A stretch of DNA of 64,000 bases from the IMG/VR virus record IMGVR_UViG_3300049174_000047, positions 7,731-71,730 of that record. One strand, given 5' to 3'. The notes below the pieces were generated by a model that had not been told where the DNA came from, did not search any database, and saw only the letters and a program-made list of their open reading frames with translations. Both the position numbers and the translations under genes were made by a program. Below, one piece after another: positions 7,519-30,398 of this stretch. Numbering within the stretch: position 1 is the stretch's first letter; each line of letters begins with the position of its first letter. This stretch comes from a virus (Duplodnaviria > Caudoviricetes).

Positions 7519-7839
7519 ATGGCCAGAAAGGCCAAGGCCAAGCTCGATGTCGAGAAGTATGCGTTCGCCGACTGCCGCGACATGCGACATCACTGGGAGC
7601 CCTACGACGCCGTCATGGACGACACCGCCAAGCTGGTCTACCGGGTGCTCAAGTGCGCCCACTGCGAGACCAAGCGGCATAGTGTCATCTCGGCCAAGAA
7701 GGGCCCCATGTACGGCCGCACGTTGTCCAATTCCTACACCTATGCCAAGGGCTATCAGGTCCCTGGCGGCATGGGGGCCGACAACATGGCCCTGATCAGG
7801 ATGAACAACGTGCTCAACGAGGTCTCCCGCCATACCTGA
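7519..7839 (+). CDS. Small zinc-binding hypothetical protein
   Basis: RBS AAAGGGA; C...HHW and CAHC motifs. Confidence 0.7.
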   Translation: MARKAKAKLDVEKYAFADCRDMRHHWEPYDAVMDDTAKLVYRVLKCAHCETKRHSVISAKKGPMYGRTLSNSYTYAKGYQVPGGMGADNMALIRMNNVLNEVSRHT

Positions 7840-8216: not shown

Positions 8217-9203
8217 ATGTTCAAAGACGCTCGCGAGCTGGATGTCCAGCGCACCGACGCCAGCTTCCGGCAGGCTCTGCGCCGCTACGCCGACGCGGCC
8301 GAGAGCTGGTTCGACGGCACCCCCGGTTCGGTGGAGGCCCGGTTCGCGGCCTGCAGTCGGTTGCTGCACTCGGTACGCGCCACCACCGCCCGGCTCAATG
8401 TCAGCGATGCCGTTCCGTTCATCCGGGCGGCCAGCCAGCTGGAAGCCGACCGTCGCGCCCTGGTGGCCCTCCACGACGATCTCATGACTGGGGCCTCCAA
8501 CCGGGAGGATGTCGCAGGGCCTCCCGGATGGAGGCTCGCCCAGTCACAGGGCATCCCGACCAGCGGCACGCCCGGCAGCTCCACGCTGCCCGGTACCGGC
8601 TCCTCCGCGCCGCCCGCCAGCTCGCCGCTGGGGCAGCCCTATGCCCCCAACCAGATGCCCATGGCCACCCCGCAGGTCTCTCCGCAGCCGGGTGCCGGGC
8701 CGATGACCCCCACCGCCAGCCTGCGCAAGCAGGCCCCCAACGCCAACCCCAAGTCCAAGCGGCTGCACGGCCCGTTCGCGGGCTTCACCGACTTCGAGGA
8801 CTGCAAGGAGAAGGCACCGGCCGGTGACCCCGACAAGTACTGCGGGAAGATCTATCACCAGGTCACCAAGGGTCGCAAGCGCAAGGGCGAGCCGCTCTCG
8901 AACTTCCAAGACAAGCAGTCCAGCCTCGAAGGCTCCGACCGGCGTTGGGTCACGCTGGAAGCGGCCAAGTTCGTCGCGGCCAACACCGACACGCTGGACG
9001 ACTCCCAAGAGCTGGCCACCCGCGCCTATCACCACGCCCAGGTGAAAACCTCGACCTTCACCCCGGCGCGGTCGGCGGCCGTCAGCGAGGCCTTCGTGAC
9101 ACAGGTGACCAGCCTGGGACTGCGGTCCCATCGTCCCGCCGTGGTCCGCACGGCCTCGATTCCCAACGTCGATGCTGTCGATCCCGCGGCGCTGTTCTTG
9201 TAA
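8217..9203 (+). CDS. Putative head-internal protein with R-x-A motifs and a PF.G..DF..C-x12-C module
   Basis: RRYA, RLA, RKQA and RTAS motifs; Cys module shared with CDS 11509-16650. Confidence 0.7.
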   Translation: MFKDARELDVQRTDASFRQALRRYADAAESWFDGTPGSVEARFAACSRLLHSVRATTARLNVSDAVPFIRAASQLEADRRALVALHDDLMTGASNREDVAGPPGWRLAQSQGIPTSGTPGSSTLPGTGSSAPPASSPLGQPYAPNQMPMATPQVSPQPGAGPMTPTASLRKQAPNANPKSKRLHGPFAGFTDFEDCKEKAPAGDPDKYCGKIYHQVTKGRKRKGEPLSNFQDKQSSLEGSDRRWVTLEAAKFVAANTDTLDDSQELATRAYHHAQVKTSTFTPARSAAVSEAFVTQVTSLGLRSHRPAVVRTASIPNVDAVDPAALFL

Positions 9204-10052: not shown

Positions 10053-10952
10053 ATGGCACTGGTGCTGCTCACCGTCGCAGGCACCGGGGCGGCCTGGGAC
10101 AACCCTGTCGGCCAGTATCCCGCCCAGGCGGGGTACGCGCTGGCCGACCCGGCGCTGATCGCCCGCGGTCAGTGCTGGGGGCTGCCCAACGGGATGAACT
10201 GGCGTTGGCAGGGTGTGGGCTACCCGGCCGCGGTGACGCCGATGCGGCCCAGCGTGAACGCCGGGGTCGAGGAGGTGGTGCGGCTGCTGCTGCCGTCCAA
10301 CTTCGACCCATTCGTCTACCCTCACCCCTGGCAGTTCGTGCTCGACGGCTACAGCCAGGGGGCCATCGTGGTGTGCAAGATCTGGCGCGACGAGATCCTG
10401 TCCCCAGCTGGGCGGCTGCACGACCGCGTCAACGACTGCTTGGGCGTGATCACCTACGGCAACCCCATGCGCAGCCCCGGCGTGGCCTACGGCAACACGC
10501 TGCTGTGGCACCACCCGGTGCCCGACCACCTGGACGGCTACGTCACGGGCGGGATCGCGGGCCCGGACTGCCTGCGTCCCGAGGAGTGTCTGTTCCCGGC
10601 CGGGCACCCGCTGGCCGGGAAGGTGGCCGTGTTCGACTTCGCGAACGCTGGTGACTTGTACGCGGCAGCTCCTATCAATTCAGACCCCTGGACCAAGGAG
10701 ACCGTTGTCGGACACGATGAGCGGCTCATCTACGAGATGGTGATGCAGTTCTCGGGCAAGAGCCTGTTCGGGTTCATGAAGGAGATGGTCGATCTGTTCA
10801 CCATGCCCTTCAGCCACGTCTGGCCGCTCGCCGAGGCCATCTACAACGGCATCCTGTTCGCCGGGCAGGGGTCCAACGCCCCGCATTGGCAGTACGACTC
10901 CACCCCGGCCATCACCCACCTGGACGCGCTCGGTAAGGAGCTGGCGGCATGA
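10053..10952 (+). CDS. lysB: Lysin B (cutinase-like mycolylarabinogalactan esterase)
   Basis: LDGYSQGAIV nucleophile elbow, ITYGNPMR, GDLYA (Asp), APHWQY (His). Confidence 0.88.
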   Translation: MALVLLTVAGTGAAWDNPVGQYPAQAGYALADPALIARGQCWGLPNGMNWRWQGVGYPAAVTPMRPSVNAGVEEVVRLLLPSNFDPFVYPHPWQFVLDGYSQGAIVVCKIWRDEILSPAGRLHDRVNDCLGVITYGNPMRSPGVAYGNTLLWHHPVPDHLDGYVTGGIAGPDCLRPEECLFPAGHPLAGKVAVFDFANAGDLYAAAPINSDPWTKETVVGHDERLIYEMVMQFSGKSLFGFMKEMVDLFTMPFSHVWPLAEAIYNGILFAGQGSNAPHWQYDSTPAITHLDALGKELAA

Positions 10953-11508: not shown

Positions 11509-14500
11509 GTGTCATTCGGGATTTTCGAGGCAGCAGTGTCCTCTGAGGCAGAGGCTGGGATCGCCAAGCAGGCTGCCAAGGACAGCTTCGACGCCGCGGT
11601 CTACGACGTGCGGGCCAAGCTGGGCCCCAGCCTGTTCCAGGCCAGCTCGGTCGATGAGTTCCGCGACCGGGTCGCGATGATGAAGCGCGACCAGTCGGTG
11701 TTCAAGATCATCGGCCAGCACCTGATGCCGGTCACCGGGGTGGTGCGCCGCATCGTGGGCGAGCGGGGCATCTTGGAGAAGGAGTTCAGGCGCACCCTGA
11801 TGGCCTGTGGGGGAGCCTGCGAGGGCAGCAAGGAGAAGTGCGAGGCCTGCAAGGCCCGCGAGGCCCGGCTCGTCCGCGGCGGCCCGCAGGGCCCAATGCC
11901 CGAGACCGGCGGCGAGAACATAGATGACTGGGAGCACTGGGGTACCGGCGGTCATGTGATAGACCCCTCCTCTGCCGAGGCGGGTCTGATGCACGCGGGG
12001 GGCCGTTACCGTCAGGCCGGGGAACACGATGTGGAGTGGTTCAACCACACTCAGGTCAACCCTTACAGCGGTCGGTCTGGGCCAGATGTCACGCCCAAAG
12101 GTCGTAGCCCAGGTCCAGCAGGTGAGTTTTGGGGCGAGGAGGACGAGCCGTACTGGAAGCCTCCTAAGAGTAAGGGCCGTCACCGTCAGGCCGACTTCGA
12201 CAACGGCACCGTCAACGTCAAGAGCACTTTCAGCCCGTCGGAGGGCGAGCTGCACCCCGAGGGCAACTGGGACGGCTACCTCAACAGCGTGGACCAGGGT
12301 GCCGAAGGCAAGGTGGACCGCAACTTCGAGAGCCGTCGCTACGCCCAGAGCGGGGACGCCTGGGGGATGGATGCCCCCGACAAGACCAGCGGTATGGCGG
12401 GGCCGACCGCACCCGGTTCGAGCCCGGCCAGGGGCTCTGTCAACCCTGCGCCGGGCAGCGTTCCCGCGGGCCCTGGCACACCGCTTGGTCCACAACCTCC
12501 CATGACGCCCGGTGGCGCTCCGACACCTGGTGGTGCGGTCCCGCCCGTGAGTCCAGGCCTCGGCCCAACGTCACCCGGTACCCGAGCTGGCTCGGTGGAT
12601 TATGCGGTGTACCACGACTGGTGTGAGGCCAACGGCCGCTCCCCGGCCCGGCTGTCGAGCCTGGACGTGTACGCGGCCAACCTGCCCGACGACCGCTACA
12701 TGCGGCTGGCGGCCATCATTACCTCTGTTGGAGTCGGGGTGCCCGGTCAAACCCGGCCCAAGCCGGTGCAGTCCCCCTCGGTGACCCCGGCCGTCAAGCC
12801 CGCGCCCACCAAGCTCCCGGCCACCAACGTCCAGCGCGGGGTGACCCAGAAGTGGCCCGACCAGGCCAACGTGCAGAACTGGAACCGTCGGGTGACCCAA
12901 GCCTGCAACGACACCGACTGGGAAGGGCAGCACATGCCTAAGACCCCGTCCACCAAGCTAAAGAAAAAGGACAAAGTGTCGGGCCGTCGGGGCATGATGG
13001 GCGACCCCTTCGAGCCGGGCGGCAAGCGGACTGGGCCGATACCGACTTCTTGGCGCAAGGACCCCGACCAGCGACTTCCCAAGGGCGTGCCCTCCACCAG
13101 ACTCAAGAAGAAGGACAAGGTGGCCGGGGCCCACACCGACTATATGGCCGAGGACAACCCCCAGTGGGACAAGTTCGTGGAGAGGTCCACCGTCAAGAGA
13201 CCGGCCGAGTTGGAAAAAAATGGCATTGAGCAGCTCAGGGTCAAGCGCAAGCTCAACAGCTCTCGTCAGGACCCGATGCGGGCCTACGTGGCTTGGTGCC
13301 GGGCCAACAACCTGACCAAGCTCAGTGCCCGCAACATCGCCTACTTCGCCGGGAACGACGCCGGGCTGGCCTACCACCTGGCGTACCGCGCTCGCCAGGC
13401 CATCCGGGTGGCGCGGAGGCGCTATGCCGGGGAGCACTCCATCGAGAACTATCCCCGAGATGAACCGAGGTTCCGGTCGGAAGGTCATCCCCGGCGTTAT
13501 ATGGACCCCACCGTCATGGGACCAGACGATCAGGATTCCTATGCCCAGGCCGTCACCGATCCCAGTGGGGCCCGTGGTTACCCGTCGCTGCCCAAGCACC
13601 GGGCTCCCCAGCATCGAAGTGGCGGTCGCTATGCCGGGCAGCACGACATCGAAATGGGAGTTGGCAGGACGCGGTATCGCAACCAGCGCAATCCCTACAC
13701 CGGGGACTACCCCAGCGGCTATAACGAGCAGGTTAGGCAGCGGGACTGGAATGGTGGTCCCACCCAGGAGGGGTACTGGCCTGAGCCAGAGCGCCCCGGC
13801 AAGCATCGTGCTTCCAGCTATCGCTACGCTCAGCCCGACTACCTGCAGAAGGCCGACGACGCCTTGTCCCAGCTCCTCAACCAGAAAGCTGAAGAATTTC
13901 AGGAGACCATCGCTCCGTTGCAGCAGGCGCTGGTGACCGTGCAGCAGGCCGAGCAGATCCAGCAGCAGCAGAACCCCATGAACGTCCTCCCGCCGCCGGG
14001 CACCGTTAACGTGATGCCGGGCGGGGACCAGGGGCCAGCTGGGATGCCAGCTCCTGGTGCCGAGGATCTCGGTGCTTCAGCTCAGGCCCTGGCCGGGCCG
14101 CTTGGTGGCGGTGGCGGTGGGGAAATGGGCGCTGACCAGGGAGCCCCCGGCGGGGGCCCCCCACCGGCCGCCGGGCCGGGTGGGGGCATGCCTCCTGAGA
14201 TGCAGATGGCTGCCAACCGAAGGCGTGGTGGTCGGGGAAAAGGTAGAGGGGCCATGAGGCCCCGCCAAGGGGCCAGCAACGATCCCCGTCCCGGTGAGGG
14301 CCCGGAGGAGTGGGCCCGCCGCAACAACTACGACCTGGGCCACCAGGACACCAAGACCGAGTGGCACCGGCTCAAGGGCGACCCCGAGCCCCGCGGGGGC
14401 TACGAGGCTTACCCCGGTCCCAAGCGCCGCCAGGGGGCCAACGTCAATGAGCTGTGGGAGAAGTTCCAGGCGACCCCCGGCAACACCCTGCGGGGCAGCG

Positions 14501-16650
14501 ACGACGACTACCGGGCCTTTCAGGAGCGCTTCAAGGTCGGTCCCCAGGCGCTACAGCGACTGAAGCGTCAGCACAGCACCACGGTAGGCCGCCGCGGGCG
14601 GCGCAAGCCAGCTGGAAGGCACGGCCCCACCGAGCGCAGTCATGAGGATGTCTACCAGGACTGGGCGGCCCGCCACGGGCACGACCCCGATGACTGGGCG
14701 ACATTCTTCGAGCAGATGTACACCCCCGGCCGCCATGAGCGGGAGAGCCGTCGCCGCCGTCGGCTCGCGGCCCGTCGCCGCCGGGCCAGCGAGCCCACCT
14801 TCGGCGAGAAGCTCAACGCCATCGCCGAGCAGTTCCACCCCTACACCTGGGACGTGCACGAACAGCACAACGGTCCCCAGTGGGCGCTGAACACGCTGCA
14901 GACTCATATCGACAAGGCCGATGAGCACTACGGCCCCGGCGCGATCTCCCCGGAGCAGAAGGCCGCCCTGCAGCAGCTGCACAGCGACTATCGCCAGAAG
15001 CATTTCCCGCAGGGGCGTCAGGGCATGCGTAAGCAGGCCTGGTCGGGCTGGGGCCCGGCCCAGTTTCCTAAGACCCGCCAGGTCCCCGGCTGGGACTGGG
15101 ACAAGCACCTGCTGGCCTACACCGCCGCCCGCCCCCAGCACTTCGCCTGCGACTGCGGGGAGGCCTTCTCCACCCCCGGCGGCTTCCGGGTGTGCGGGGG
15201 CTGCGGCAAGCAGTGGAACTCCTACGTGATCGGCACCGGGGGCACCAACCGCAACGCCTCGGCCGACAAGTTCCTGGTGCGCGAGATCCCCGCCCGCAAG
15301 GAGGGCGATGTGATCGTGGCCAGCCGCCGCACAGCTGGCATCTCGGAGATCTTGGAGAAGCACCGCGGCAATCGCCCTGTCAACGCCATCGAGGCCCAGG
15401 ACGCCGACTCGGACTGGCATCTGGACCGGGGCAACACCTCGGCCGCCTGGACGCTGCATAAGGAGAAGCAGCTGGGCAGGCCGATGAGTCAATGGTCCCA
15501 GGACGACTGGGCCATCGCGGGCGAGCCGCCGAAGCGAAAGGCCAGCCGCAGGCCTAATTTCAGGATGGCACTTCCTCAGATTCGTCAGCCATTGGGCAGT
15601 ATGCGCAAGCAGGCCCCGTTCGGGGGCTACAAGGACTTCGATGCCTGCACCGACGCCAACTCCGATAAACGCTCGCCTGACGCCTATTGCGGCTACATCA
15701 AGCACAAGGTGGAGGGCGGGAAGCATGAGGGCCCGCCTGGGACATTCCGTGACTACGACTGGATGCACAATCCGGTCAAGCCTCCTAAATTGGACCGCAG
15801 GCAAAACGGCACCCCGGTCATGCGAACGACGCCGAATACCGGCCCTGGCTATCCCGATGCTTATGGTGCTGACGAGTGGAATGAGGGTGGCTACTTCACC
15901 ACCCCGCCAAAGAAGCATCGCCGGGGCAGAGCCACGCGCAGGCGGGCCGAGGCCGAGGACATGGGTCTCAATCGGTTCCGGCAAGGCCCGGAGTATGGGA
16001 ATCAGAAGGGCCGTCCGGTCAATCCCAAGGCCTTCAAGCAGGAGTACAACCCCCACGTCGAGTACACCGACGAGCCTGATTACCCCGAGATGAGGGGTGA
16101 CCCCATGAATCCTGATCGCGGCGGCCCGGAATACGAGAAGAAGATGCGTGAGTATGGCCCGAGCGCCAAGGGGATTCGTGATCTCTACAAGGGCAAGCAC
16201 CCCCCTGGTGCCTACCCTCATGGCGGGTTCTGGGGGCCGAGTGGCCCCGCGGAGGCACGCTGGCCCGGACATGCCCCCGGCCAGATGGACCCGCACTTCG
16301 ACTGGTATCACGACTGGTCCCAGGAATATGTCCCGGACAGAAGGGCCGTTGATTTTCGTCCCGGCTCCCCCCGGCTCAGCGGGCGGCATCGCCTGACCGG
16401 CCCCAAGCACCAGCCCAGTAAAAGCCGTCCTTCGGTGGAGGATGCCCCCCGCCGGGCCTATCCCTCGCACCAGGAGCCGCCGCCCTACGTGACGCTGGTG
16501 GACCGCACCGGGGCCCTGCACAATCTCATCGACCCTGGTGAGATCGGCGAGGGCCAGGACACCGGCATCCCCACTATGGGTCAGATGGGCCGTGACTGGG
16601 CCCGTCGTGGTGACGGCGGGCGCTACGTGATGGGCCCGGCCCCGCGATGA
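11509..16650 (+). CDS. Giant (1713 aa) modular head-region protein A; candidate polyprotein
   Basis: Mosaic of short modules separated by basic R/K-x-A motifs; includes a CDC...C..C zinc ribbon and a coiled coil (LQKADDALSQLLNQKAEEFQ). Confidence 0.85.
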   Translation: MSFGIFEAAVSSEAEAGIAKQAAKDSFDAAVYDVRAKLGPSLFQASSVDEFRDRVAMMKRDQSVFKIIGQHLMPVTGVVRRIVGERGILEKEFRRTLMACGGACEGSKEKCEACKAREARLVRGGPQGPMPETGGENIDDWEHWGTGGHVIDPSSAEAGLMHAGGRYRQAGEHDVEWFNHTQVNPYSGRSGPDVTPKGRSPGPAGEFWGEEDEPYWKPPKSKGRHRQADFDNGTVNVKSTFSPSEGELHPEGNWDGYLNSVDQGAEGKVDRNFESRRYAQSGDAWGMDAPDKTSGMAGPTAPGSSPARGSVNPAPGSVPAGPGTPLGPQPPMTPGGAPTPGGAVPPVSPGLGPTSPGTRAGSVDYAVYHDWCEANGRSPARLSSLDVYAANLPDDRYMRLAAIITSVGVGVPGQTRPKPVQSPSVTPAVKPAPTKLPATNVQRGVTQKWPDQANVQNWNRRVTQACNDTDWEGQHMPKTPSTKLKKKDKVSGRRGMMGDPFEPGGKRTGPIPTSWRKDPDQRLPKGVPSTRLKKKDKVAGAHTDYMAEDNPQWDKFVERSTVKRPAELEKNGIEQLRVKRKLNSSRQDPMRAYVAWCRANNLTKLSARNIAYFAGNDAGLAYHLAYRARQAIRVARRRYAGEHSIENYPRDEPRFRSEGHPRRYMDPTVMGPDDQDSYAQAVTDPSGARGYPSLPKHRAPQHRSGGRYAGQHDIEMGVGRTRYRNQRNPYTGDYPSGYNEQVRQRDWNGGPTQEGYWPEPERPGKHRASSYRYAQPDYLQKADDALSQLLNQKAEEFQETIAPLQQALVTVQQAEQIQQQQNPMNVLPPPGTVNVMPGGDQGPAGMPAPGAEDLGASAQALAGPLGGGGGGEMGADQGAPGGGPPPAAGPGGGMPPEMQMAANRRRGGRGKGRGAMRPRQGASNDPRPGEGPEEWARRNNYDLGHQDTKTEWHRLKGDPEPRGGYEAYPGPKRRQGANVNELWEKFQATPGNTLRGSDDDYRAFQERFKVGPQALQRLKRQHSTTVGRRGRRKPAGRHGPTERSHEDVYQDWAARHGHDPDDWATFFEQMYTPGRHERESRRRRRLAARRRRASEPTFGEKLNAIAEQFHPYTWDVHEQHNGPQWALNTLQTHIDKADEHYGPGAISPEQKAALQQLHSDYRQKHFPQGRQGMRKQAWSGWGPAQFPKTRQVPGWDWDKHLLAYTAARPQHFACDCGEAFSTPGGFRVCGGCGKQWNSYVIGTGGTNRNASADKFLVREIPARKEGDVIVASRRTAGISEILEKHRGNRPVNAIEAQDADSDWHLDRGNTSAAWTLHKEKQLGRPMSQWSQDDWAIAGEPPKRKASRRPNFRMALPQIRQPLGSMRKQAPFGGYKDFDACTDANSDKRSPDAYCGYIKHKVEGGKHEGPPGTFRDYDWMHNPVKPPKLDRRQNGTPVMRTTPNTGPGYPDAYGADEWNEGGYFTTPPKKHRRGRATRRRAEAEDMGLNRFRQGPEYGNQKGRPVNPKAFKQEYNPHVEYTDEPDYPEMRGDPMNPDRGGPEYEKKMREYGPSAKGIRDLYKGKHPPGAYPHGGFWGPSGPAEARWPGHAPGQMDPHFDWYHDWSQEYVPDRRAVDFRPGSPRLSGRHRLTGPKHQPSKSRPSVEDAPRRAYPSHQEPPPYVTLVDRTGALHNLIDPGEIGEGQDTGIPTMGQMGRDWARRGDGGRYVMGPAPR

Positions 16651-17015
16651 TGACCGACACCCTCGGCGTCTGTGAGTCCTGCAAGGAACTCAAGGAGATC
16701 GTCTACGCCGACTCGGTGGGCCGGGAGTACTGCGACAGCTGCTTCTCCACCATGCCGGTGCCCACCCCCACCCGGATCATGGACTACCTGCTGCGCACTA
16801 TCCCGTTCCGGGTGGGCGACCGGGTGGAGGCTCGTACCGCCGCGGTGATCTTCGACGGTATCGGGACCATTGCGGAGATCTCCATCGAGCCCGAGAAGTT
16901 CGGCACCCCGGTCTACCCCAGCTTCCGGGTGGTCATCGAGGAGAAGGCGTACCCCGAGGCCCCAGACGAGCGCTGGTATATGGAGGCGCAGCTCAAGAAG
17001 GTGAAGGGTGACTAA
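16647..17015 (+). CDS. Hypothetical protein (two CxxC plus SH3-like FRVGDRV motif)
   Basis: CESC, CDSC and FRVGDRVEA. Confidence 0.7.
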   Translation: MMTDTLGVCESCKELKEIVYADSVGREYCDSCFSTMPVPTPTRIMDYLLRTIPFRVGDRVEARTAAVIFDGIGTIAEISIEPEKFGTPVYPSFRVVIEEKAYPEAPDERWYMEAQLKKVKGD

Positions 17016-19503
17016 CCCGATCATCCCGGCAGGAGGCAACTGGTCGGCCGAGGCGGCCCGGCTCAAGCAGGCGGGCTTCCCCGGCCTGCCGCGTAACCCC
17101 GCCATGGCCCGTATCGAGGCCCGCCAGATCGCCGAGACCGTACAGACCCGCGGCTCGCTGACCGACCTGACCAATCGCAAGCTGGCCGCCGACATGAATC
17201 GCCGTCGGGCTTCCACCCGCGGCTCGGTGGGCGGGGGCACCATCCGGGTGGCCAGCGACCTGCAGATGGCGCTGCCGAAGATCCGGCAGCCGCTGTCGAG
17301 CCTGATGGACAAGGGCATTCCCTTCGACATCACCGACCCGAAACAGCTCATTGAATTGCGCAGATGGTGCCGTCTGTTTTATGCCACGCATGATTTGGTG
17401 CCGCTATTGGTTGATATTTACAGCAAATTCCCAGTGACCGGGATCGAGTTTTCTTCAAAAGACCCGTTGATCGAGAAATTCTATACCGAGATGTTTCTCG
17501 ACAAGCTCAATTATGAAGAGTTCCTCCCCGATGCCATCGGCCGTGAGTATTTCGTTGCCGGGGAGGTTACCACGCTGGCCCACTTCAGCGAGGAGCTGGG
17601 GGTATGGAGCAGCGAAGAGGTCCTCAATCCCGACATGGTGGCCATTTCCAAGAGCCTCTTTGTCGAGGAGGAGCGGGTGCAGCTGCTCGTCAAGGAGTTG
17701 GTGGACGCGCTGCGCTCAGGCCCCTCCGGGCACCCCGACTCCCAGGAGCGGCCCAGCGAGCGCCTGGAACGCACCTTCGAGTATCAGCAACTGCAGAAGT
17801 ACTACCCCGAGATCATCCAGGCGGCCTCCCGCGATGACGGCCTGGACATCGCCGACGCTCTGGTATCCCGTCTGGTCAACAAGGCCAGTCCGTGGGACCT
17901 GCGCGGCACCCCGCCTTTGCTGAGATCCTTCCGCACCCTGCTGATGGAGGAGTCGCTGAACTGCGCCCAGGACGCCGTCTGCGACCGGCTCTACGCCCCG
18001 ATGATCCTGGCCACCATGGGCATCGAGAACATGGGCGACGGCGAGCCCTGGATACCCAGCGCCTCCGAGCTGGACGACCTGCGCGATGATCTGCAAAGCG
18101 CCCTGGCTGCCGACTTCAAGATCCTCGTCCACAACTTCGGTGTTCAGGTCACCCCTGTTTTCGGCCGGGAAAGTGTCCCCCGTTTCGATCAGGATTACGA
18201 CCGGGTGGACGCAAAACTTATGCAGGCGTGGGGGATTGGTCAGGCTTTGATTATGGGTGGCACCGGGGCGTCGGGCACCTACGCTTCATCTGCCATTAAC
18301 CGTGAGGTCTGCGAACAGCTGATGATGGGCTTCCAAAAGAAGGTCATCAGGCACATGCGCAAACGGATGGCCGTAATTGCCGAGGCCCAGGAACACTACG
18401 ACTACGAATTGAAGGGCGGGCAACGGATTCCGCTCTACCGAGAGATTGTGGTGGAGGACCCCGAGACCGGCGAGAAGCGCATCGAGCGCGTCCCTAAGCT
18501 GCTGGTGCCTGAGGTGCACTTCGCGACCCTGAATTTGCGCGACGAGGCCACCGAGCGCAACTTCGTGATGACGCTCAAGCAGGCCGGTGTGCCGGTCTCC
18601 GACAAGACGCTGGCGATCAACATCCAGCTCGACGCCGAGCAGGAGCTGGAACGCGAGGCGCAGGAGACCGTGGACAAGGCGCTAGCCAAGGCCCAGGCGT
18701 GGAAGAAGGTTCAGGACCTCTGCGACCTGGAAGGCCTGCCGTACCCACCGGAGCTGGCGGCGCACCTGGAATCCACCCTGCAGCTGCGCCAGATGCTGCA
18801 GCAGACCAACCAGCTCGATCTGCAGACCAAGATGCTGCAGATGCAGAAGGACCAGATGACCCCGGCCGGTCAGGTGGGGGCCATCCAGCCCGGCCAGCAG
18901 CCGATGCAGGGGGTGCCTCCCGAGCAGGCACAGCAGGAGGAGCCCGACGAGCAGCAGCTCATCCAGCAGGCCCTGCAGCTGGTTCAATCGACAGAGGCCC
19001 AGTCGGTGAGCGCCAACGCCCAGGCCGAGCCACCGATGGCCTCGGGCCCCTCGTCCTCCCCGCTCACCGAGTCCAGTCAGGTCGGCACCGGGGGAGCCAC
19101 CGAGCCCTCGCGCAACCGCAGCCGTCCGGTGGAGTCCGACGAGCAGCGAGCCGGTGCCCCCAAGGCCGCCTCCCAGCGCTGGGCTGAGCGGGTGCACGGC
19201 AATCACCGCTTCGCCCGCGGCCCGTCCAGTCTGGGGCACTCCCTACACGCCAGCGAGGAGGACGTGCAGGCCGCCATCCAGCGCCGGGAGATGTACGCCC
19301 GCCATCCGGGCACCCCCTTCGTCAGTCAGCTGATCGAGGACCCCGGCTTCTGGCGCATGCTCAACGCCACCGGGGACGAGGACGCCATCCGTGCCGACTG
19401 GCCCGAGATCCGGGCCGGGAAGGCCAGCGAGTCGGGGCGGCTGTTGCAGGACTTGGTCAGCCAGTACGAGGAGGTTACGGGGGTTCAGCCGATATGGGAC
19501 TGA
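17008..19503 (+). CDS. Portal protein
   Basis: 831 aa in the head module; WCRLFY..H.LVP.L.DIYS.FP, REYF..GE and ....PLL.S.....E..L..AQ..V..R patterns; N-terminal basic leader ending RVAS. Confidence 0.75.
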   Translation: MTNPIIPAGGNWSAEAARLKQAGFPGLPRNPAMARIEARQIAETVQTRGSLTDLTNRKLAADMNRRRASTRGSVGGGTIRVASDLQMALPKIRQPLSSLMDKGIPFDITDPKQLIELRRWCRLFYATHDLVPLLVDIYSKFPVTGIEFSSKDPLIEKFYTEMFLDKLNYEEFLPDAIGREYFVAGEVTTLAHFSEELGVWSSEEVLNPDMVAISKSLFVEEERVQLLVKELVDALRSGPSGHPDSQERPSERLERTFEYQQLQKYYPEIIQAASRDDGLDIADALVSRLVNKASPWDLRGTPPLLRSFRTLLMEESLNCAQDAVCDRLYAPMILATMGIENMGDGEPWIPSASELDDLRDDLQSALAADFKILVHNFGVQVTPVFGRESVPRFDQDYDRVDAKLMQAWGIGQALIMGGTGASGTYASSAINREVCEQLMMGFQKKVIRHMRKRMAVIAEAQEHYDYELKGGQRIPLYREIVVEDPETGEKRIERVPKLLVPEVHFATLNLRDEATERNFVMTLKQAGVPVSDKTLAINIQLDAEQELEREAQETVDKALAKAQAWKKVQDLCDLEGLPYPPELAAHLESTLQLRQMLQQTNQLDLQTKMLQMQKDQMTPAGQVGAIQPGQQPMQGVPPEQAQQEEPDEQQLIQQALQLVQSTEAQSVSANAQAEPPMASGPSSSPLTESSQVGTGGATEPSRNRSRPVESDEQRAGAPKAASQRWAERVHGNHRFARGPSSLGHSLHASEEDVQAAIQRREMYARHPGTPFVSQLIEDPGFWRMLNATGDEDAIRADWPEIRAGKASESGRLLQDLVSQYEEVTGVQPIWD

Positions 19504-25960: not shown

Positions 25961-28810
25961 GTGAGAGGCGATGACTGGGGCGACCCCCACTTCCGTTCCT
26001 GCGACGAGCTGCCGGGAGACCGTCGCGAGCTGACGGCCGCGCATATCAAGTGGGCCGAATCCGACGCGGCCGAGGAGCAGCTGATCCGGCCCTATCGCGG
26101 GCGCTACGGGGCAATCCAGCGGGGCTTCCAGTTCAAGCCGGGCTTTCTCTACACCCAGGTGCGGGCCATCGCCGCTCGGATCAACCAGAACTTCGACGGG
26201 TGGCCGTCGGGTGAACTAAAGAAAAGCTATAGAACTTTTCTAGGTAAACCGTGCTTCGTCAATCATCAAAATTTTGACCCCGCCAAGGCCCGCGGCAAGG
26301 TCATCGCGGCCCGCTACATCGAGAACGGCCGGGACAAGTACGTGGACGTGATTCAGGAGATCGACGCCCAGCGCTTCCCCAAGCTGGCCCATGAGATCAA
26401 GACCGGCGGGATGGACTCGGTCTCGATGGGTGTCGAGGCGGGCTTCACGATCTGCAGTTATTGCGGAAACAAAGCGGTGGACGAGGACGACTTCTGCTCC
26501 CACGTCAAGTACCACAAGGGCCGTATCCTGCCGCGCATCAACGCCAAGACCGGGGCCCATGAGGACGTGCTGGTCTACGAGAAGTGCCACAAATTGGGGT
26601 TCTTCGAGTTGAGCTTCGTGTTCGACCCCGCCGACGAGACTGCCGTGGTCAGCCGGGTGCTCTCGGCCAGCCGCACCGCCCAGGCCCCGGCCGAGCAGAT
26701 CCCCGGTGAGATGCAGACCTACTCCGACTTCCCCTACGTCGATATGCCGAGCCCGATGATGCCTCAAGCCAGCCGACGCCGCGCTTACGGCGAGGCCGAG
26801 CAGCCCGACGATGACTGTTTCTGCACCTGTGAGGACCACCATCACGACGATCCCGAGTGGGAAGAGCAGTGGCGCGACACCGGGGAAGAGGCTCCCGAGG
26901 ACATCGACACTCTGCGCGACGACGACGAGTCCGAGGGCGAGGACTCATTTAAACACTACGTCGAGAGCCCTAAAGAGTTGAGAGGTCCTGATCTCGATCA
27001 GACCAAGCGCCTCGACCGAGCACAAGAGCAGGAAGGACTCGACGCGGATCGTCGCGTGGAGGACGTGGAAAACGTAGAAGGAGTTCCCATGCCCCGCACC
27101 GGACGCCGCACTCGAAGGAGCACCCGTATGAGCACGCTGGTCGATCCCCGCACCGGGCGGCGCTTCGTCGCCGCCGACGAGCTGCCTCCCGAGGTGCTGC
27201 AGGCCTTGATGGCTGGCGGCGGGGGTGGTGGTGCCCCCATGCCGATGGACGACGGCGGGGGCGGCTTCCCGCCTCCCGATGACGGTGGTTTCCCGCCCGA
27301 GGACGAGGGTGACTTCCCGCCGTCCGACGAGGGTGACGAGTTCCCCGAGGACGAGTTCGGCGGGGAGGACGAGGACGACTACGGCGACGAGGGCGACGAG
27401 GGCGACGAGGGTGAAGAGTCCGACGAGGACCTCATCGAGGAGGCCGAGGAGGACCTAGAGCAGGCCGAAGGCGAGGAGGGCTACGGCGAGGAAGAGGAAT
27501 ACCCCGAAGAGGGTGAGGACGAGTTCGGCGGCGAGGAGTACCCCGAGGACGAGGAAGAGGAAGGCCCGCCGCCAGAGTTTTTGGCCCGCCGTCATGGAAA
27601 TCGCCGCACTTCCTACCAGAAGAAGAGAAGGGCTCGGAAAGGAACGCCGATGAGTCTCGCAGCTCGCAACCGTGTGGCCAGCGTTGGCCGTCGCCGCCAC
27701 TACGCCGACGACTCGGGCCACTTCGACAGTGGGCCCTATGGCGAAGATAACCAGGGCCAGCAGGAGGACGTGTTCATCAGCCAGACGCCGGGCACCGAGC
27801 CGGTGGCAGACCCGACGCCGGGCGACGGCACGATCTCCAACACCGAGAAGAACCTGGTGGCCCGCATCCAGGCCCGCAACAACGAGCAGCGCCGCGACCT
27901 GATCGCCTACGAGCAGATCACCGGGCGGCGCATCCGCGCCGACGGGCACGCCACCGAGAACCCCGACGAGGTCAACCCGACCGTCAACACCGGGCCGGGC
28001 GGCGAGGAGCAGACCGGCGACGACTTCGAGTCGCTGGCCCTGGACAACGAGGAGACCCAGCCCAAGAACGCCTCGCTGGCTCCCTTCAAGGCCTTCAACA
28101 CCTGGCTGTACCAGACCACCGGCCGCCAGGCCCGCCAGCACGGCAACGCCACGTTCCTGCGCCGCCAGGCGGCCCGGTTCTGCCAGGCCTCCGGTTATTC
28201 AGTCGAGTCGCTGTTCCCGGCCATGGGGATGGTGTTGCGCGAGATCCGCGCCAATCAAGGGAGGACCGCCATGCGCCGGTACGCCGACGACAAGCTGGAT
28301 GTTGCGGCCCCGCAGGACCGCATCGACGTAGAGCAGCCGGTATCGGACACCACCGACGCCGACGCGCAGGCGAGTCAGTTCGGCCTGAGTGACTTCGGCG
28401 GCAACGCCGGGGACAACCTGGCCGATCCCAATCTCGACACCGACTCCCAGATCTGGGCTCCCGGAGAGAAGCCAGCTGGGTTCAAGAGTTCCAACCGCAA
28501 GGCTGACGGCATCACCGCGGTGCGTTACGCGGAGGCCTTCATCGAGGCGGGGCTGGCCCCCAACACTCCCGAGGAGAAATGGAAGCTCGCGGGGCTGGCA
28601 CAGACGATGCGCCACGGCACCATCGTGGATCGCATCCGATTGCTGGACGCCGTGAACACCGTTCACCAAGCCAGCAGACGCCGCACCGCAGGAGTCAGCG
28701 GTGCCGGTCGTGGTATTCCACAGGGCTTCGGTGGCCGTCAGTTGACCGCGGGAGTCGTGCGGGAGGCCGCAAACGACATCGCAACAGACAGCGCCATCTT
28801 CCTCAAGTAG
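25961..28810 (+). CDS. Prohead (capsid maturation) protease fused to scaffold
   Basis: F.GKP.FVNH (His), DSVSMG (Ser), C..C...C.H zinc insert, FFELSFV.DPAD.TA; long acidic/basic scaffold-like C-terminus; lies upstream of decoration and capsid genes. Confidence 0.85.
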   Translation: MRGDDWGDPHFRSCDELPGDRRELTAAHIKWAESDAAEEQLIRPYRGRYGAIQRGFQFKPGFLYTQVRAIAARINQNFDGWPSGELKKSYRTFLGKPCFVNHQNFDPAKARGKVIAARYIENGRDKYVDVIQEIDAQRFPKLAHEIKTGGMDSVSMGVEAGFTICSYCGNKAVDEDDFCSHVKYHKGRILPRINAKTGAHEDVLVYEKCHKLGFFELSFVFDPADETAVVSRVLSASRTAQAPAEQIPGEMQTYSDFPYVDMPSPMMPQASRRRAYGEAEQPDDDCFCTCEDHHHDDPEWEEQWRDTGEEAPEDIDTLRDDDESEGEDSFKHYVESPKELRGPDLDQTKRLDRAQEQEGLDADRRVEDVENVEGVPMPRTGRRTRRSTRMSTLVDPRTGRRFVAADELPPEVLQALMAGGGGGGAPMPMDDGGGGFPPPDDGGFPPEDEGDFPPSDEGDEFPEDEFGGEDEDDYGDEGDEGDEGEESDEDLIEEAEEDLEQAEGEEGYGEEEEYPEEGEDEFGGEEYPEDEEEEGPPPEFLARRHGNRRTSYQKKRRARKGTPMSLAARNRVASVGRRRHYADDSGHFDSGPYGEDNQGQQEDVFISQTPGTEPVADPTPGDGTISNTEKNLVARIQARNNEQRRDLIAYEQITGRRIRADGHATENPDEVNPTVNTGPGGEEQTGDDFESLALDNEETQPKNASLAPFKAFNTWLYQTTGRQARQHGNATFLRRQAARFCQASGYSVESLFPAMGMVLREIRANQGRTAMRRYADDKLDVAAPQDRIDVEQPVSDTTDADAQASQFGLSDFGGNAGDNLADPNLDTDSQIWAPGEKPAGFKSSNRKADGITAVRYAEAFIEAGLAPNTPEEKWKLAGLAQTMRHGTIVDRIRLLDAVNTVHQASRRRTAGVSGAGRGIPQGFGGRQLTAGVVREAANDIATDSAIFLK

Positions 28811-29374: not shown

Positions 29375-29390
29375 GGAGGCATTGAACATC

Positions 29391-30398
29391 ATGACTACGG
29401 CAATCCCGCAGGCCATCGGTTCCGGCCTGCAGCGCATCGCCCGCAACTCGGAGGACTACGTCGCCGACATCCAGCGGGTCATGGACCGGATGGGAGGCCA
29501 GAAGCTCAGCCATCGGCAGAAGCAAGCCAAATTGGCGCACATTCTGGGCGACCGTCAGAACGGAATGATGCGGCTCGGACAAAGCATGATCGGGCCAATT
29601 CAGCTCCAATTGCGTTACCAAGGTATTTTGAGAAACGTATTGCTGGAAGATACCCTCACTCCCGGCGTACCCATTCAGTACGATGTGCTGGATGACCTTG
29701 GTCAGGCCTACATGCTCCACGGCGACGAGGGTGAAATCAAAATCACGCCGTTTGAAGGCAAGCGCGTGGAGGTGCAATTGTTCCGAATTGCATCATTCCC
29801 GAAAATTAAAAAGGAGGATTTGTACTACCTCCGCAGTAATATCGTGGAATACACACAAGACATGACGAAGCAGGCCATTATGCGGCAGGAAGATAGCCGC
29901 CTGGTGACCTTGCTCGAAGTGTCGGCGGCTAATTACCGCCTGGTGGATACGACCGCCGTTCCTGGCACCGGCTCACTTCCCAACGAAATCACAATCGGTG
30001 GGTCCACGCTGATGCCGAGCGACCTCTACACCGCCGTGACCTTCACGGATCAGCGGATGTTGGACTCCTCGCGGTTGCTCTGCAATCCGCAAGAATACCG
30101 CGACTTTTACCGCTGGGAAATTGCGACCACGGGCTGGGCATTTAAAGACAGCGTGGTGGCCGGTGAAAAGATCGTGCAATTCGGCGAGTTCCAAATCGGC
30201 AAGAGCATCATCATCCCCCGCGGGACGGTGTACCTGACCCCCGAGCCGACCTTCCTCGGCGTATTCCCGGTCATGTATTCCTTGGATGTCGAGGAAAACA
30301 ACCAGGTGGAGCAATTCCACAAAGGCTGGGTTATGGACGAATTGGTTGGAATGGTGGTCCTAAACCCCCGCGGCATAATTATCCTGCGGAAGGCGTAA
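29391..30398 (+). CDS. Major capsid protein (HK97 fold)
   Basis: 335 aa after the decoration gene; RBS AAGGAGG; terminal GW...E.VG.VVLNPRGI motif. Confidence 0.85.
   Translation: MTTAIPQAIGSGLQRIARNSEDYVADIQRVMDRMGGQKLSHRQKQAKLAHILGDRQNGMMRLGQSMIGPIQLQLRYQGILRNVLLEDTLTPGVPIQYDVLDDLGQAYMLHGDEGEIKITPFEGKRVEVQLFRIASFPKIKKEDLYYLRSNIVEYTQDMTKQAIMRQEDSRLVTLLEVSAANYRLVDTTAVPGTGSLPNEITIGGSTLMPSDLYTAVTFTDQRMLDSSRLLCNPQEYRDFYRWEIATTGWAFKDSVVAGEKIVQFGEFQIGKSIIIPRGTVYLTPEPTFLGVFPVMYSLDVEENNQVEQFHKGWVMDELVGMVVLNPRGIIILRKA

Follow-up and report, generated by a model that had tools for sequence, protein, structure and literature searches.

Proteolysis of many substrates within the prohead and the packaging of internal proteins into the head are well known from the phages T4, phiKZ and SPN3US. 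The T4 prohead protease gp21 recognises the motif L/I-x-E and cuts after Glu, and herpesvirus assemblin cuts after Ala at the R and M sites of the scaffold UL26/UL26.5. Here we describe a candidate system of this kind in a stretch of 64,000 nucleotides from a Caudoviricetes virus (IMG/VR record IMGVR_UViG_3300049174_000047, positions 7,731 to 71,730; from here on the window, to which all positions refer unless stated otherwise). Its central element is the gene of a large protein of the head module, protein A, which carries many copies of an Arg-x-Ala (R-x-A) motif. Protein A is probably a prohead core or internal head protein in which the protease of the phage cuts at many R-x-A sites, with the sequence between the sites being free to vary.

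For T4, capsid-targeting propeptides have been described (PMC7411985); small peptides are among the products of cleavage, and the internal proteins pass into the host (in part PMC7411985). In the giant phages phiKZ (gp175), 201phi2-1 and SPN3US (gp245), a single motif, A/S/G-x-E, marks the cut sites of many head proteins, among them the portal and abundant ejection proteins; this proteolysis removes long propeptides, and the protease has a targeting extension (PMC7411985).

The head module of the window contains, in this order, the coding sequence (CDS) 8217, lysis genes, the gene of protein A, a DUF7245 gene, the portal, two small open reading frames (ORFs), protein B, a protease-scaffold fusion, a cement protein and the major capsid protein. 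The genes that matter here are the following, with a slash marking the putative cut after Ala:

8217..9203, + strand: CDS 8217, 328 amino acids (aa), with the sites RRYA/D and RKQA/P and a Cys-pair module
11509..16650, + strand: protein A, 1713 aa, phrog_2922, no Pfam family, upstream of the DUF7245 gene and the portal
17008..19503, + strand: portal, phrog_2833; MNRRRA/S and IRVA/S precede a conserved MALPKIRQPL segment
20755..25959, + strand: protein B, 1734 aa, phrog_2940, homologue of the 'LysM' proteins of E3 and Phrappuccino, with five [RH]YA sites
25961..28810, + strand: protease-scaffold fusion, 949 aa; protease domain at about aa 31-241 (nucleotides 26051-26683)
29391..30398, + strand: major capsid protein, phrog_2522, match to phage G gp27 (PDB 6wkk, E 1e-24)

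The reading frame of protein A is open for 1713 codons, as given in a preliminary description of this DNA, and its GTG start agrees with the N-terminus of all homologues (MSFGxFEA). The protease, which that description had placed two genes downstream of protein A, is in fact encoded by the sixth ORF after it, directly after protein B. CDS 8217 is probably another head-internal protein.

The T4 prohead core (gp21; IPI-III, Alt, gp67, gp68, gp22; internal peptides II and VII) shares with this locus the protease fold (Z 8.3 to PDB 5jbl), the presence of one short motif in capsid, scaffold or core and internal proteins, and the position of the genes in the head module. Unlike in T4, the candidate motif has Ala after Arg instead of L/I-x-E, a single protein of 1713 aa has about 10-18 candidate sites where T4 has one N-terminal propeptide, protease and scaffold form one fusion protein, and hypervariable inserts are found between the sites. 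The giant phages differ in P1 (Glu there, Ala here), in host group and in capsid lineage (the capsid protein here resembles phage G gp27), and processing in SPN3US mostly removes one propeptide of 111-130 aa per protein, whereas the layout here would be that of beads on a string with multiple sites. Herpesvirus assemblin and its scaffold are similar in providing the top structural matches (varicella-zoster virus (VZV), Z 8.7), in the fusion of protease and scaffold and in P1 Ala; in addition, a site about 38 aa before the C-terminus of both the protease-scaffold and protein B resembles the herpesvirus M site, which frees the scaffold from the shell. However, P3 is Arg rather than V/L/I, many more substrates and sites are implied, and this is a bacteriophage whose enzyme has 10-13% sequence identity to the herpesvirus proteases.

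Direct homologues with the same gene order are Catera gp87, Phrappuccino gp44 and E3 gp68-gp70, which have the domains D1, D2, D5, D7 and D8 (see below) in common with protein A and whose phages show the same R-x-A enrichment in head proteins; the protease-scaffold likewise has direct homologues in Cluster C/AA phages (phrog_2774). Protein A is about twice as long as these homologues (1713 versus 779-1120 aa) and contains three GEHD cassettes and lineage-specific inserts of about 900 aa in total; its preferred P2 is Tyr (RYA), that of Catera is Thr (RTA), and the E3 version consists of three genes and has GNAT-like modules. Three features appear to be new here: Arg-x-Ala takes the place of x-x-Glu, candidate sites are numerous within one protein, and the hypervariable inserts are bounded by the motif. 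We found no description of such a system in the literature searched, which is not proof of absence.

An Arg-x-Ala motif specific to head proteins

All 14 motif instances quoted for protein A in the preliminary description are present, and its statement that the motif recurs in CDS 8217, protein B, the protease-scaffold, the portal (RRRA/S and IRVA/S) and the capsid leader (QRIA/R) is correct for each of these proteins. Compared with shuffles, protein A is enriched in [RK][RK]-x-A (11 versus 3.2 expected, P<0.0005), in R-x-A (22 versus 14.4, P=0.02) and in [RH]YA (4 versus 0.7, P=0.006). When proteins A and B, the protease and CDS 8217 are scanned for all tripeptides without bias, RYA ranks first, with 10 copies versus 1.0 expected.

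The motif is specific to head proteins: a comparison with other proteins, proposed for tail proteins in the preliminary description, finds 13 copies of [RH]YA in four head proteins and none in the approximately 14,000 other residues of the window, which has about 60 ORFs in all. A refined motif, R-[TYQRVHK]-A-[AGDSEQ], which was defined post hoc on this window, is present 26 times in the 5,893 aa of six head proteins and 6 times in 14,121 aa elsewhere (odds ratio 10, P=2e-9). The same bias towards head proteins is seen in Catera (22 versus 5, P=8e-7) and Phrappuccino (18 versus 6, P=2e-5), but as the proteins are homologous, the replication is not entirely independent. In 39 non-redundant protease-scaffold tails, RTA (96 versus 15.6) and RYA (50 versus 6.7) are among the most enriched tripeptides. 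A coherent switch of P2 between genomes was tested for as well: Tyr is the leading residue in this phage and Thr in Catera, but with distributions that overlap so strongly, co-evolution cannot be claimed.

The motif is conserved at domain edges

Protein A had been described as about 25 unrelated segments. Comparison with its homologues and AlphaFold modelling give instead about 7-9 small conserved domains joined by long, disordered and variable linkers, and three of the segments (the GEHD cassettes, see below) share boundary elements. Conservation is restricted to the islands D1-D8, and all stretches between the islands are variable:

11509..11805, + strand: D1, N-terminal domain (aa 1-99), in all homologues, ends in a [RK]-x-[LQ]-A-like stretch, here RRTLMA/C
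12193..12345, + strand: D2, conserved island (aa 229-279), ends RRYA/Q, P1 Ala279
12346..12585, + strand: Pro/Gly-rich lineage-specific insert (aa 280-359), begins directly after RRYA
12586..12735, + strand: D3, three-helix domain (aa 360-409), predicted local distance difference test score (pLDDT) 78-94, motif Y-x-D-W-C-x-A-N-G
13114..13125, + strand: candidate site DKVA/G, P1 Ala539, lineage-specific
13246..13434, + strand: D4, helical domain (aa 580-642), pLDDT 82-96, paralogue of D3
13417-13428, + strand: candidate site RRYA/G, P1 Ala640, at the end of the last helix of D4
13831..14043, + strand: D5 (aa 775-845), a 46-residue helix and PPPGTVNV, most conserved block of the family
14275..14439, + strand: 55-aa insert (aa 923-977), flanked by the duplicated motif RPRQGA (14263-14274) and KRRQGA (14428-14439), absent from most homologues
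14440..14598, + strand: D6, helical domain (aa 978-1030), pLDDT 84-96, starts directly after RRQGA/N
14776..14787, + strand: candidate site RRRA/S, P1 Ala1093, lineage-specific
15028..15336, + strand: family-conserved site RKQA/W (P1 Ala1177), then D7 (aa 1178-1276)
15937..15948, + strand: candidate site RRRA/E, P1 Ala1480, in the lineage-specific region of about 370 aa between D7 and D8
16447-16458, + strand: candidate site PRRA/Y, P1 Ala1650, in the same region
16474..16647, + strand: D8, C-terminal conserved island (aa 1656-1713), ..DPGE..DWARR..

D7 is a beta-rich four-Cys zinc-ribbon domain common to Catera gp87, E3 gp70 and Phrappuccino gp44, and ends in SRRTA/G (P1 Ala1276; the E3 equivalent is RERRTA). 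In most homologues D2 passes straight to D3, without the insert of aa 280-359, and in Phrappuccino gp44 D8 adjoins D7 directly. A near-copy of the DKVA/G site, KLKKKDKVSG, is found 57 residues upstream of it and has Ser in place of Ala.

In nearly all homologues the motif stands directly before D2 (RR-x-A/DFxG), D5 (RRR-x-A/APDYLQK), D6 (R-x-RQA/A.V..LW) and D7 ([SR]RK-x-A/WSGWGP), and the sequence upstream of these motifs is unrelated between homologues. Across the family, 2192 of 8235 homology-block starts lie near [RK][RK]xA, compared with 845±111 in randomisations (2.6x), an excess for which a handful of conserved sites is responsible. When aa 100-1299 are modelled with AlphaFold from 41 sequences, 786 of the 1200 residues have pLDDT <50, and D3, D4, D5, D6 and D7 stand out as confident small domains. 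All 13 candidate sites in the model fall into 10-residue blocks with a mean pLDDT of at most 55 (the chance of this is about 0.007, as 68% of all blocks are that low), and the sites at Ala640, Ala774, Ala977, Ala1177 and Ala1276 are right at the edges of domains.

Conservation of the motif extends to the other head proteins. The capsid leader GSGLQRIA/R conforms to GSG[LF]xRxA, a pattern that this phage shares with Catera, Phrappuccino and four IMG/VR relatives. In the portal, MNR-x-R-x-A is present, and the second site, R-x-A directly before S-[DN]-x-Q-[MI]-A-[LM]-P, is kept in four of six relatives. Protein B has RTA/GR about 38 aa before its C-terminus in all eight relatives compared, and the tail of the protease-scaffold has many R-x-A sites, with RRRTA/G 38 aa from its end and RRTA/G being conserved. 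Motif copies in the leader of the capsid protein, at the N-terminus of the portal, in the tail of the scaffold and in internal proteins form the pattern that is classical for a prohead protease and known from T4 (gp21) and SPN3US (gp245) (PMC7411985). The R-x-A motif at domain edges is most likely the cut site of the capsid protease.

Insertions, cassettes and shared modules

In the protein A family, 130 unique insertions or deletions (indels) of at least 20 aa with well-aligned flanks were examined for the motif within 3 aa of the edge and compared with 500 randomisations. The motif is found at 54 left edges (18.9±4.1 expected), at 35 right edges (17.7±4.0) and at both edges in 17 cases (2.8±1.5), and none of the 500 randomisations reaches these numbers. 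The control pattern [RKH]x[LVI] is not enriched at the edges. Typical inserts have 40-230 aa and lie between ..RRQA/ and ..RRRTA/APDY, which is the position that is occupied by two GEHD cassettes in protein A.

These cassettes, and two further modules of protein A with counterparts in other head proteins, are:

12007..12018, + strand: candidate site YRQA/G, P1 Ala170, start of GEHD cassette 1
12019..12192, + strand: GEHD cassette 1 (aa 171-228), GEHDVE ... NPYSG ... YWKPP..GRHRQA, ends at HRQA/D, P1 Ala228 (family-conserved RRxA/DFxG)
13429..13830, + strand: GEHD cassettes 2 and 3 in tandem (aa 641-709 and 710-774), predicted to be disordered, end at YRYA/Q, P1 Ala774
15544..15615, + strand: portal-segment copy of 24 aa (aa 1346-1369), flanked by KRKA/S and RKQA/P
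15616..15753, + strand: Cys-pair module (aa 1370-1415), together with the preceding RKQA/P homologous to residues 149-232 of CDS 8217

All three cassettes start with R-Y-(x-x-)A/G-[EQ]-H-[DS]-[IV]-E and end in a stretch of the type K/R-H-R-x-A. At the cassette starts the DNA is 88-95% identical over 20-26 nucleotides, and the interiors differ: positions 12000-12019 and 12174-12193 are 95% identical, and the starts of cassettes 2 and 3 share 88% over 26 nucleotides (13420-13445 versus 13627-13652). The interval of cassettes 2 and 3 ranges from about 0 to 232 aa in homologues, with R-x-A on both borders. There are three GEHD starts in this genome and 0-1 per homologue; a GEHD start and the DPSSAEAGL element (aa 151-162 of protein A) are also found inside the protease-scaffold of three relatives (loci L006-L008).

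The portal-segment copy and the Cys-pair module are each bordered by motif sites. The former, FRMALPQIRQPLGS, copies the conserved portal segment LQMALPKIRQPLSS (17200-17330) and is present in few homologues. In the portal itself the MALPKIRQPL segment comes after the candidate cut sites, and the copy in protein A may mimic the mature portal N-terminus. The Cys-pair module, RKQAP-FGGYxDFxxC ... DxYCGxIxHxV, is 35% identical (E 1e-6) between aa 1353-1415 of protein A (15565-15753) and aa 149-232 of CDS 8217 (8661-8912) and has two conserved Cys. Taken together, the shared GEHD start, the DPSSAEAGL element, the portal copy and the Cys-pair module indicate that short modules move between head proteins, with their boundaries conserved and not their contents.

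The protease

Residues 31-241 of the protease-scaffold match the PHROG family 'head maturation protease' (E 1.6e-18). For the AlphaFold2 model of this domain (pLDDT 77) the top Foldseek matches are all herpesvirus proteases, with weak E-values of 0.02-0.1. With VIA-align, the model matches the VZV protease (Z 8.7, root mean square deviation 2.8 A, 113 residues aligned) and T4 gp21 (Z 8.3, 2.9 A, 123 residues aligned), Z values that are only moderately above background. His102 (VNHQN) and Ser155 (DSVSMG) are invariant in 31 protease sequences. The assemblin-type His-Ser protease of the preliminary description is therefore borne out, as an enzyme of the assemblin/gp21 fold with invariant catalytic residues.

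The protease domain is kept at 63-84% identity in more than 330 homologues with a total length of 768-1647 aa. It carries a CxxC...CxH zinc-ribbon-like insert (Cys3-His) at aa 160-185 (26440-26510), which is invariant in 31 homologues and unusual among proteases of the assemblin/gp21 fold.

Proposed processing and alternative explanations

The arrangement that would account for these observations is as follows. Protein A would be a string of about 7-9 small domains (D1-D8) on long, disordered and fast-changing linkers, in a contractile-tailed actinobacteriophage related to Bxz1, E3 and Phrappuccino. The putative recognition element, common to protein A, protein B, CDS 8217, the protease-scaffold, the portal N-terminus and the capsid leader, would have Arg or Lys at P3, often with more basic residues before it, T/Y/Q/R/V at P2 and Ala at P1, followed by a small or acidic residue. 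After assembly of the prohead, the serine protease of the assemblin/gp21 fold (25961-26683) would cut after Ala; this would release the conserved domains as separate polypeptides and excise the linkers, and the pieces would stay and have their role in the head. As the linkers would be cut out, insertions, duplications and exchanges between two sites would be tolerated, and the family would become hypervariable.

Several findings weigh against this proposal. The loose motif [RKH]-x-A, on which the preliminary description was built, is present in protein A at chance level (33 versus 26.9±4.5 in shuffles, P=0.10), and the statement that nearly every segment ends in it is thus largely self-fulfilling, as it follows from the way the segments were defined. 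Shuffles underestimate [RK][RK] patterns because basic residues cluster, the control [RK][RK]x[LV] likewise shows an increase of about 2-fold in head proteins, and many motif counts rest on homologous and hence non-independent positions. At the indel edges of protein A the reversed pattern A-x-[RKH] is enriched too, so the signal is an Ala-basic-Ala patch rather than a cleanly oriented site. The view that indels respect motif boundaries holds for protein A but not at single edges for the protease-scaffold family: its 70 indels have the motif at 11 and 14 edges, with 11.6 and 13.2 expected. Some instances may escape cutting altogether, as they are part of conserved segments that are probably folded; AVRYA/EAF in the tail of the scaffold is an example. 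Cutting after Ala had been deduced by analogy to assemblin, but the fold does not fix the specificity at P1, since T4 gp21 has the same fold and cuts after Glu. Finally, a literature search found no experimental N-termini and no virion proteomics or cleavage data for Bxz1, Catera, Myrna or E3 virions; the papers on the Myrna capsid (PMC7150772) and on phage G (PMC12484599) do not report processing sites. The protease-scaffold alignment still has inserts between two motif copies (SRTA/Q versus HRTA/Q ... RRRRA/Q; RRRA/YGE versus RRYA/D ... RRRHA/YGE).

The enrichment of the reversed pattern would also be expected if the Ala-basic-Ala patches were flexible basic junctions (DNA-contacting or charge-balancing linkers) or recombination scars and protein A were uncut; in the case of scars, the GC-rich coding DNA CGN-CGN-NNN-GCN would be the microhomology for module shuffling. 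The direct DNA repeats of 20-26 nucleotides at the cassette starts, the presence of the same short elements in different genes and the position of the patches in disordered, Arg-rich sequence fit this explanation. We nevertheless consider it unlikely: the motif is kept, Ala included, at fixed places in the proteins of Catera, Phrappuccino and E3, which are 35-55% identical, and this indicates a constraint at the protein level. Moreover, the capsid leader and the C-terminus of protein B, neither of them a module junction, have the motif with a single Arg, the motif is absent from tail proteins of similar composition, and the control [RKH]x[LVI] shows no enrichment at indel edges.

In the reading of the preliminary description, the gene would be an expandable array for a library of some 25 small, bioactive peptides, which the head would carry and possibly eject into the host, there to act as effectors or against host defence. 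The number of sites does not clearly scale with the length of the protein, though (Spearman 0.31, P=0.17, not significant, in 21 complete protein A homologues), which weakens the idea of an array, despite the wide range of lengths in the family (about 690-1767 aa). The motif at the borders of the variable inserts, the three GEHD cassettes here versus 0-1 in homologues, the near-identical DNA at the cassette starts and the GEHD and DPSSAEAGL elements within the protease-scaffold of relatives are all compatible with a library. But most inserts are predicted to be disordered, are rich in Pro, Gly and Arg and have no conserved interior, in the cassettes the boundaries alone are conserved, and conserved domains, not unrelated peptides, account for about half of protein A; of the core fragments of T4, most are lost from the head (PMC7411985 covers the capsid-targeting propeptides). 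A library of 25 unrelated peptides is therefore an overstatement for what are conserved domains and disordered spacers, and we regard this explanation as quite improbable. Equally doubtful, in our view, is a modular 'cargo rack' for effectors or counter-defence, in which the inserts bounded by R-x-A would be diversifying, head-packaged cargo peptides or mini-domains, exchanged among protein A, protein B and the protease-scaffold through recombination at the boundary DNA, released by the protease and delivered with the genome.

Homologues of protein A and genome setting

Protein A matches phrog_2922 with E 1.6e-58 over four stretches, and the gene neighbourhood is shared as well. Approximately 70 homologues of 690-1767 aa are found in metagenomes and phages; their scores reach up to 722 bits, yet a single local alignment covers just 5-34% of protein A. 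The shorter homologues are compact full-length forms of 690-940 aa rather than split genes. Other searches gave no function: a megablast of the gene against phage records has no match, Pfam has no hit above threshold for the whole protein or nine sub-domains, the PDB sequence search has no match for protein A or the protease, and a search of IMG/VR for related loci with protein A as query returned no locus. In the ESM Atlas, the zinc-ribbon domain matches only unnamed viral clusters at 0.81, a score in the range attained by one third of shuffled or reversed proteins. These failures to assign a function by Pfam, PDB or Atlas, and the label 'methyltransferase' that depositors gave to some Cluster C homologues, are the reason to consider that protein A is no head component but, for example, an early or regulatory multi-domain protein encoded beside the portal, with the motif being irrelevant to it; this is very improbable, as the order protein A-DUF7245-portal is conserved in four phage groups, including Catera (gp87), Phrappuccino (gp44) and E3 (gp68-70), E3 gp70, a homologue of D7, is annotated by its depositors as a structural protein, and the motif, the Cys-pair module and the portal peptide are common to protein A and other proteins of the head module.

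In E3 (L002 9001-14150), the homologue of protein A is divided into the three genes gp68, gp69 and gp70, and gp68 and gp69 end in motif-like basic patches (..VRRR* and ..TRGAN*). The annotation of E3 gp70 gives it as a join of two pieces and flags it as pseudo.

Relatives carry extra modules in their head proteins: LysM (PF01476) in some protein A homologues, GNAT-like motifs in E3 gp70 (L002 10991-14150), and PF26571/PF25735 (ARB-07466-like), PF06737 or PF00857 in some protease-scaffold tails (P0060, P0064, P0104, P0106, P0108 and others). One homologue is labelled by one source as an S-adenosylmethionine-dependent methyltransferase. This suggests that head proteins serve as carriers of enzyme cargo.

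The 64-kb window, taken from a contig of 71.7 kb, has about 65% G+C. The kin of its head and tail genes are contractile-tailed actinobacteriophages: Bxz1 and Catera (Cluster C), Phrappuccino, the Rhodococcus phage E3 and some Gordonia phages. The portal is about 56% identical to its relatives, with tblastn matches spread over 223-227 records. One of the neighbouring genes points to a mycolic-acid-containing host:

10053-10952: LysB-like gene

The capsid gene most likely starts at the ATG at 29391 (MTTAIPQ..), as in four IMG/VR relatives, and not at the upstream TTG at 29382 of the ORF list. Phage G gp27 (PDB 6wkk, E 1e-24) is the sole relative of the capsid protein with a solved structure, and its chain aligns from residue 41 of the 338-aa translation (start 29382); the first 40 or so residues, including the candidate leader, are thus without a counterpart in the structure.

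Implications

If protein A and its partners are processed as proposed, the mature forms of capsid, portal, scaffold and giant 'hypothetical' head proteins would become predictable in hundreds of sequenced actinobacteriophages, among them the Cluster C mycobacteriophages, which are in wide use. The system would combine a protease of the T4 gp21 fold with a herpesvirus-like Ala at P1. The R-x-A code would also explain the length and the variability of these head proteins, and it would mark the pieces that are likely set free inside the head, including the cell-wall-binding and enzyme modules of relatives.

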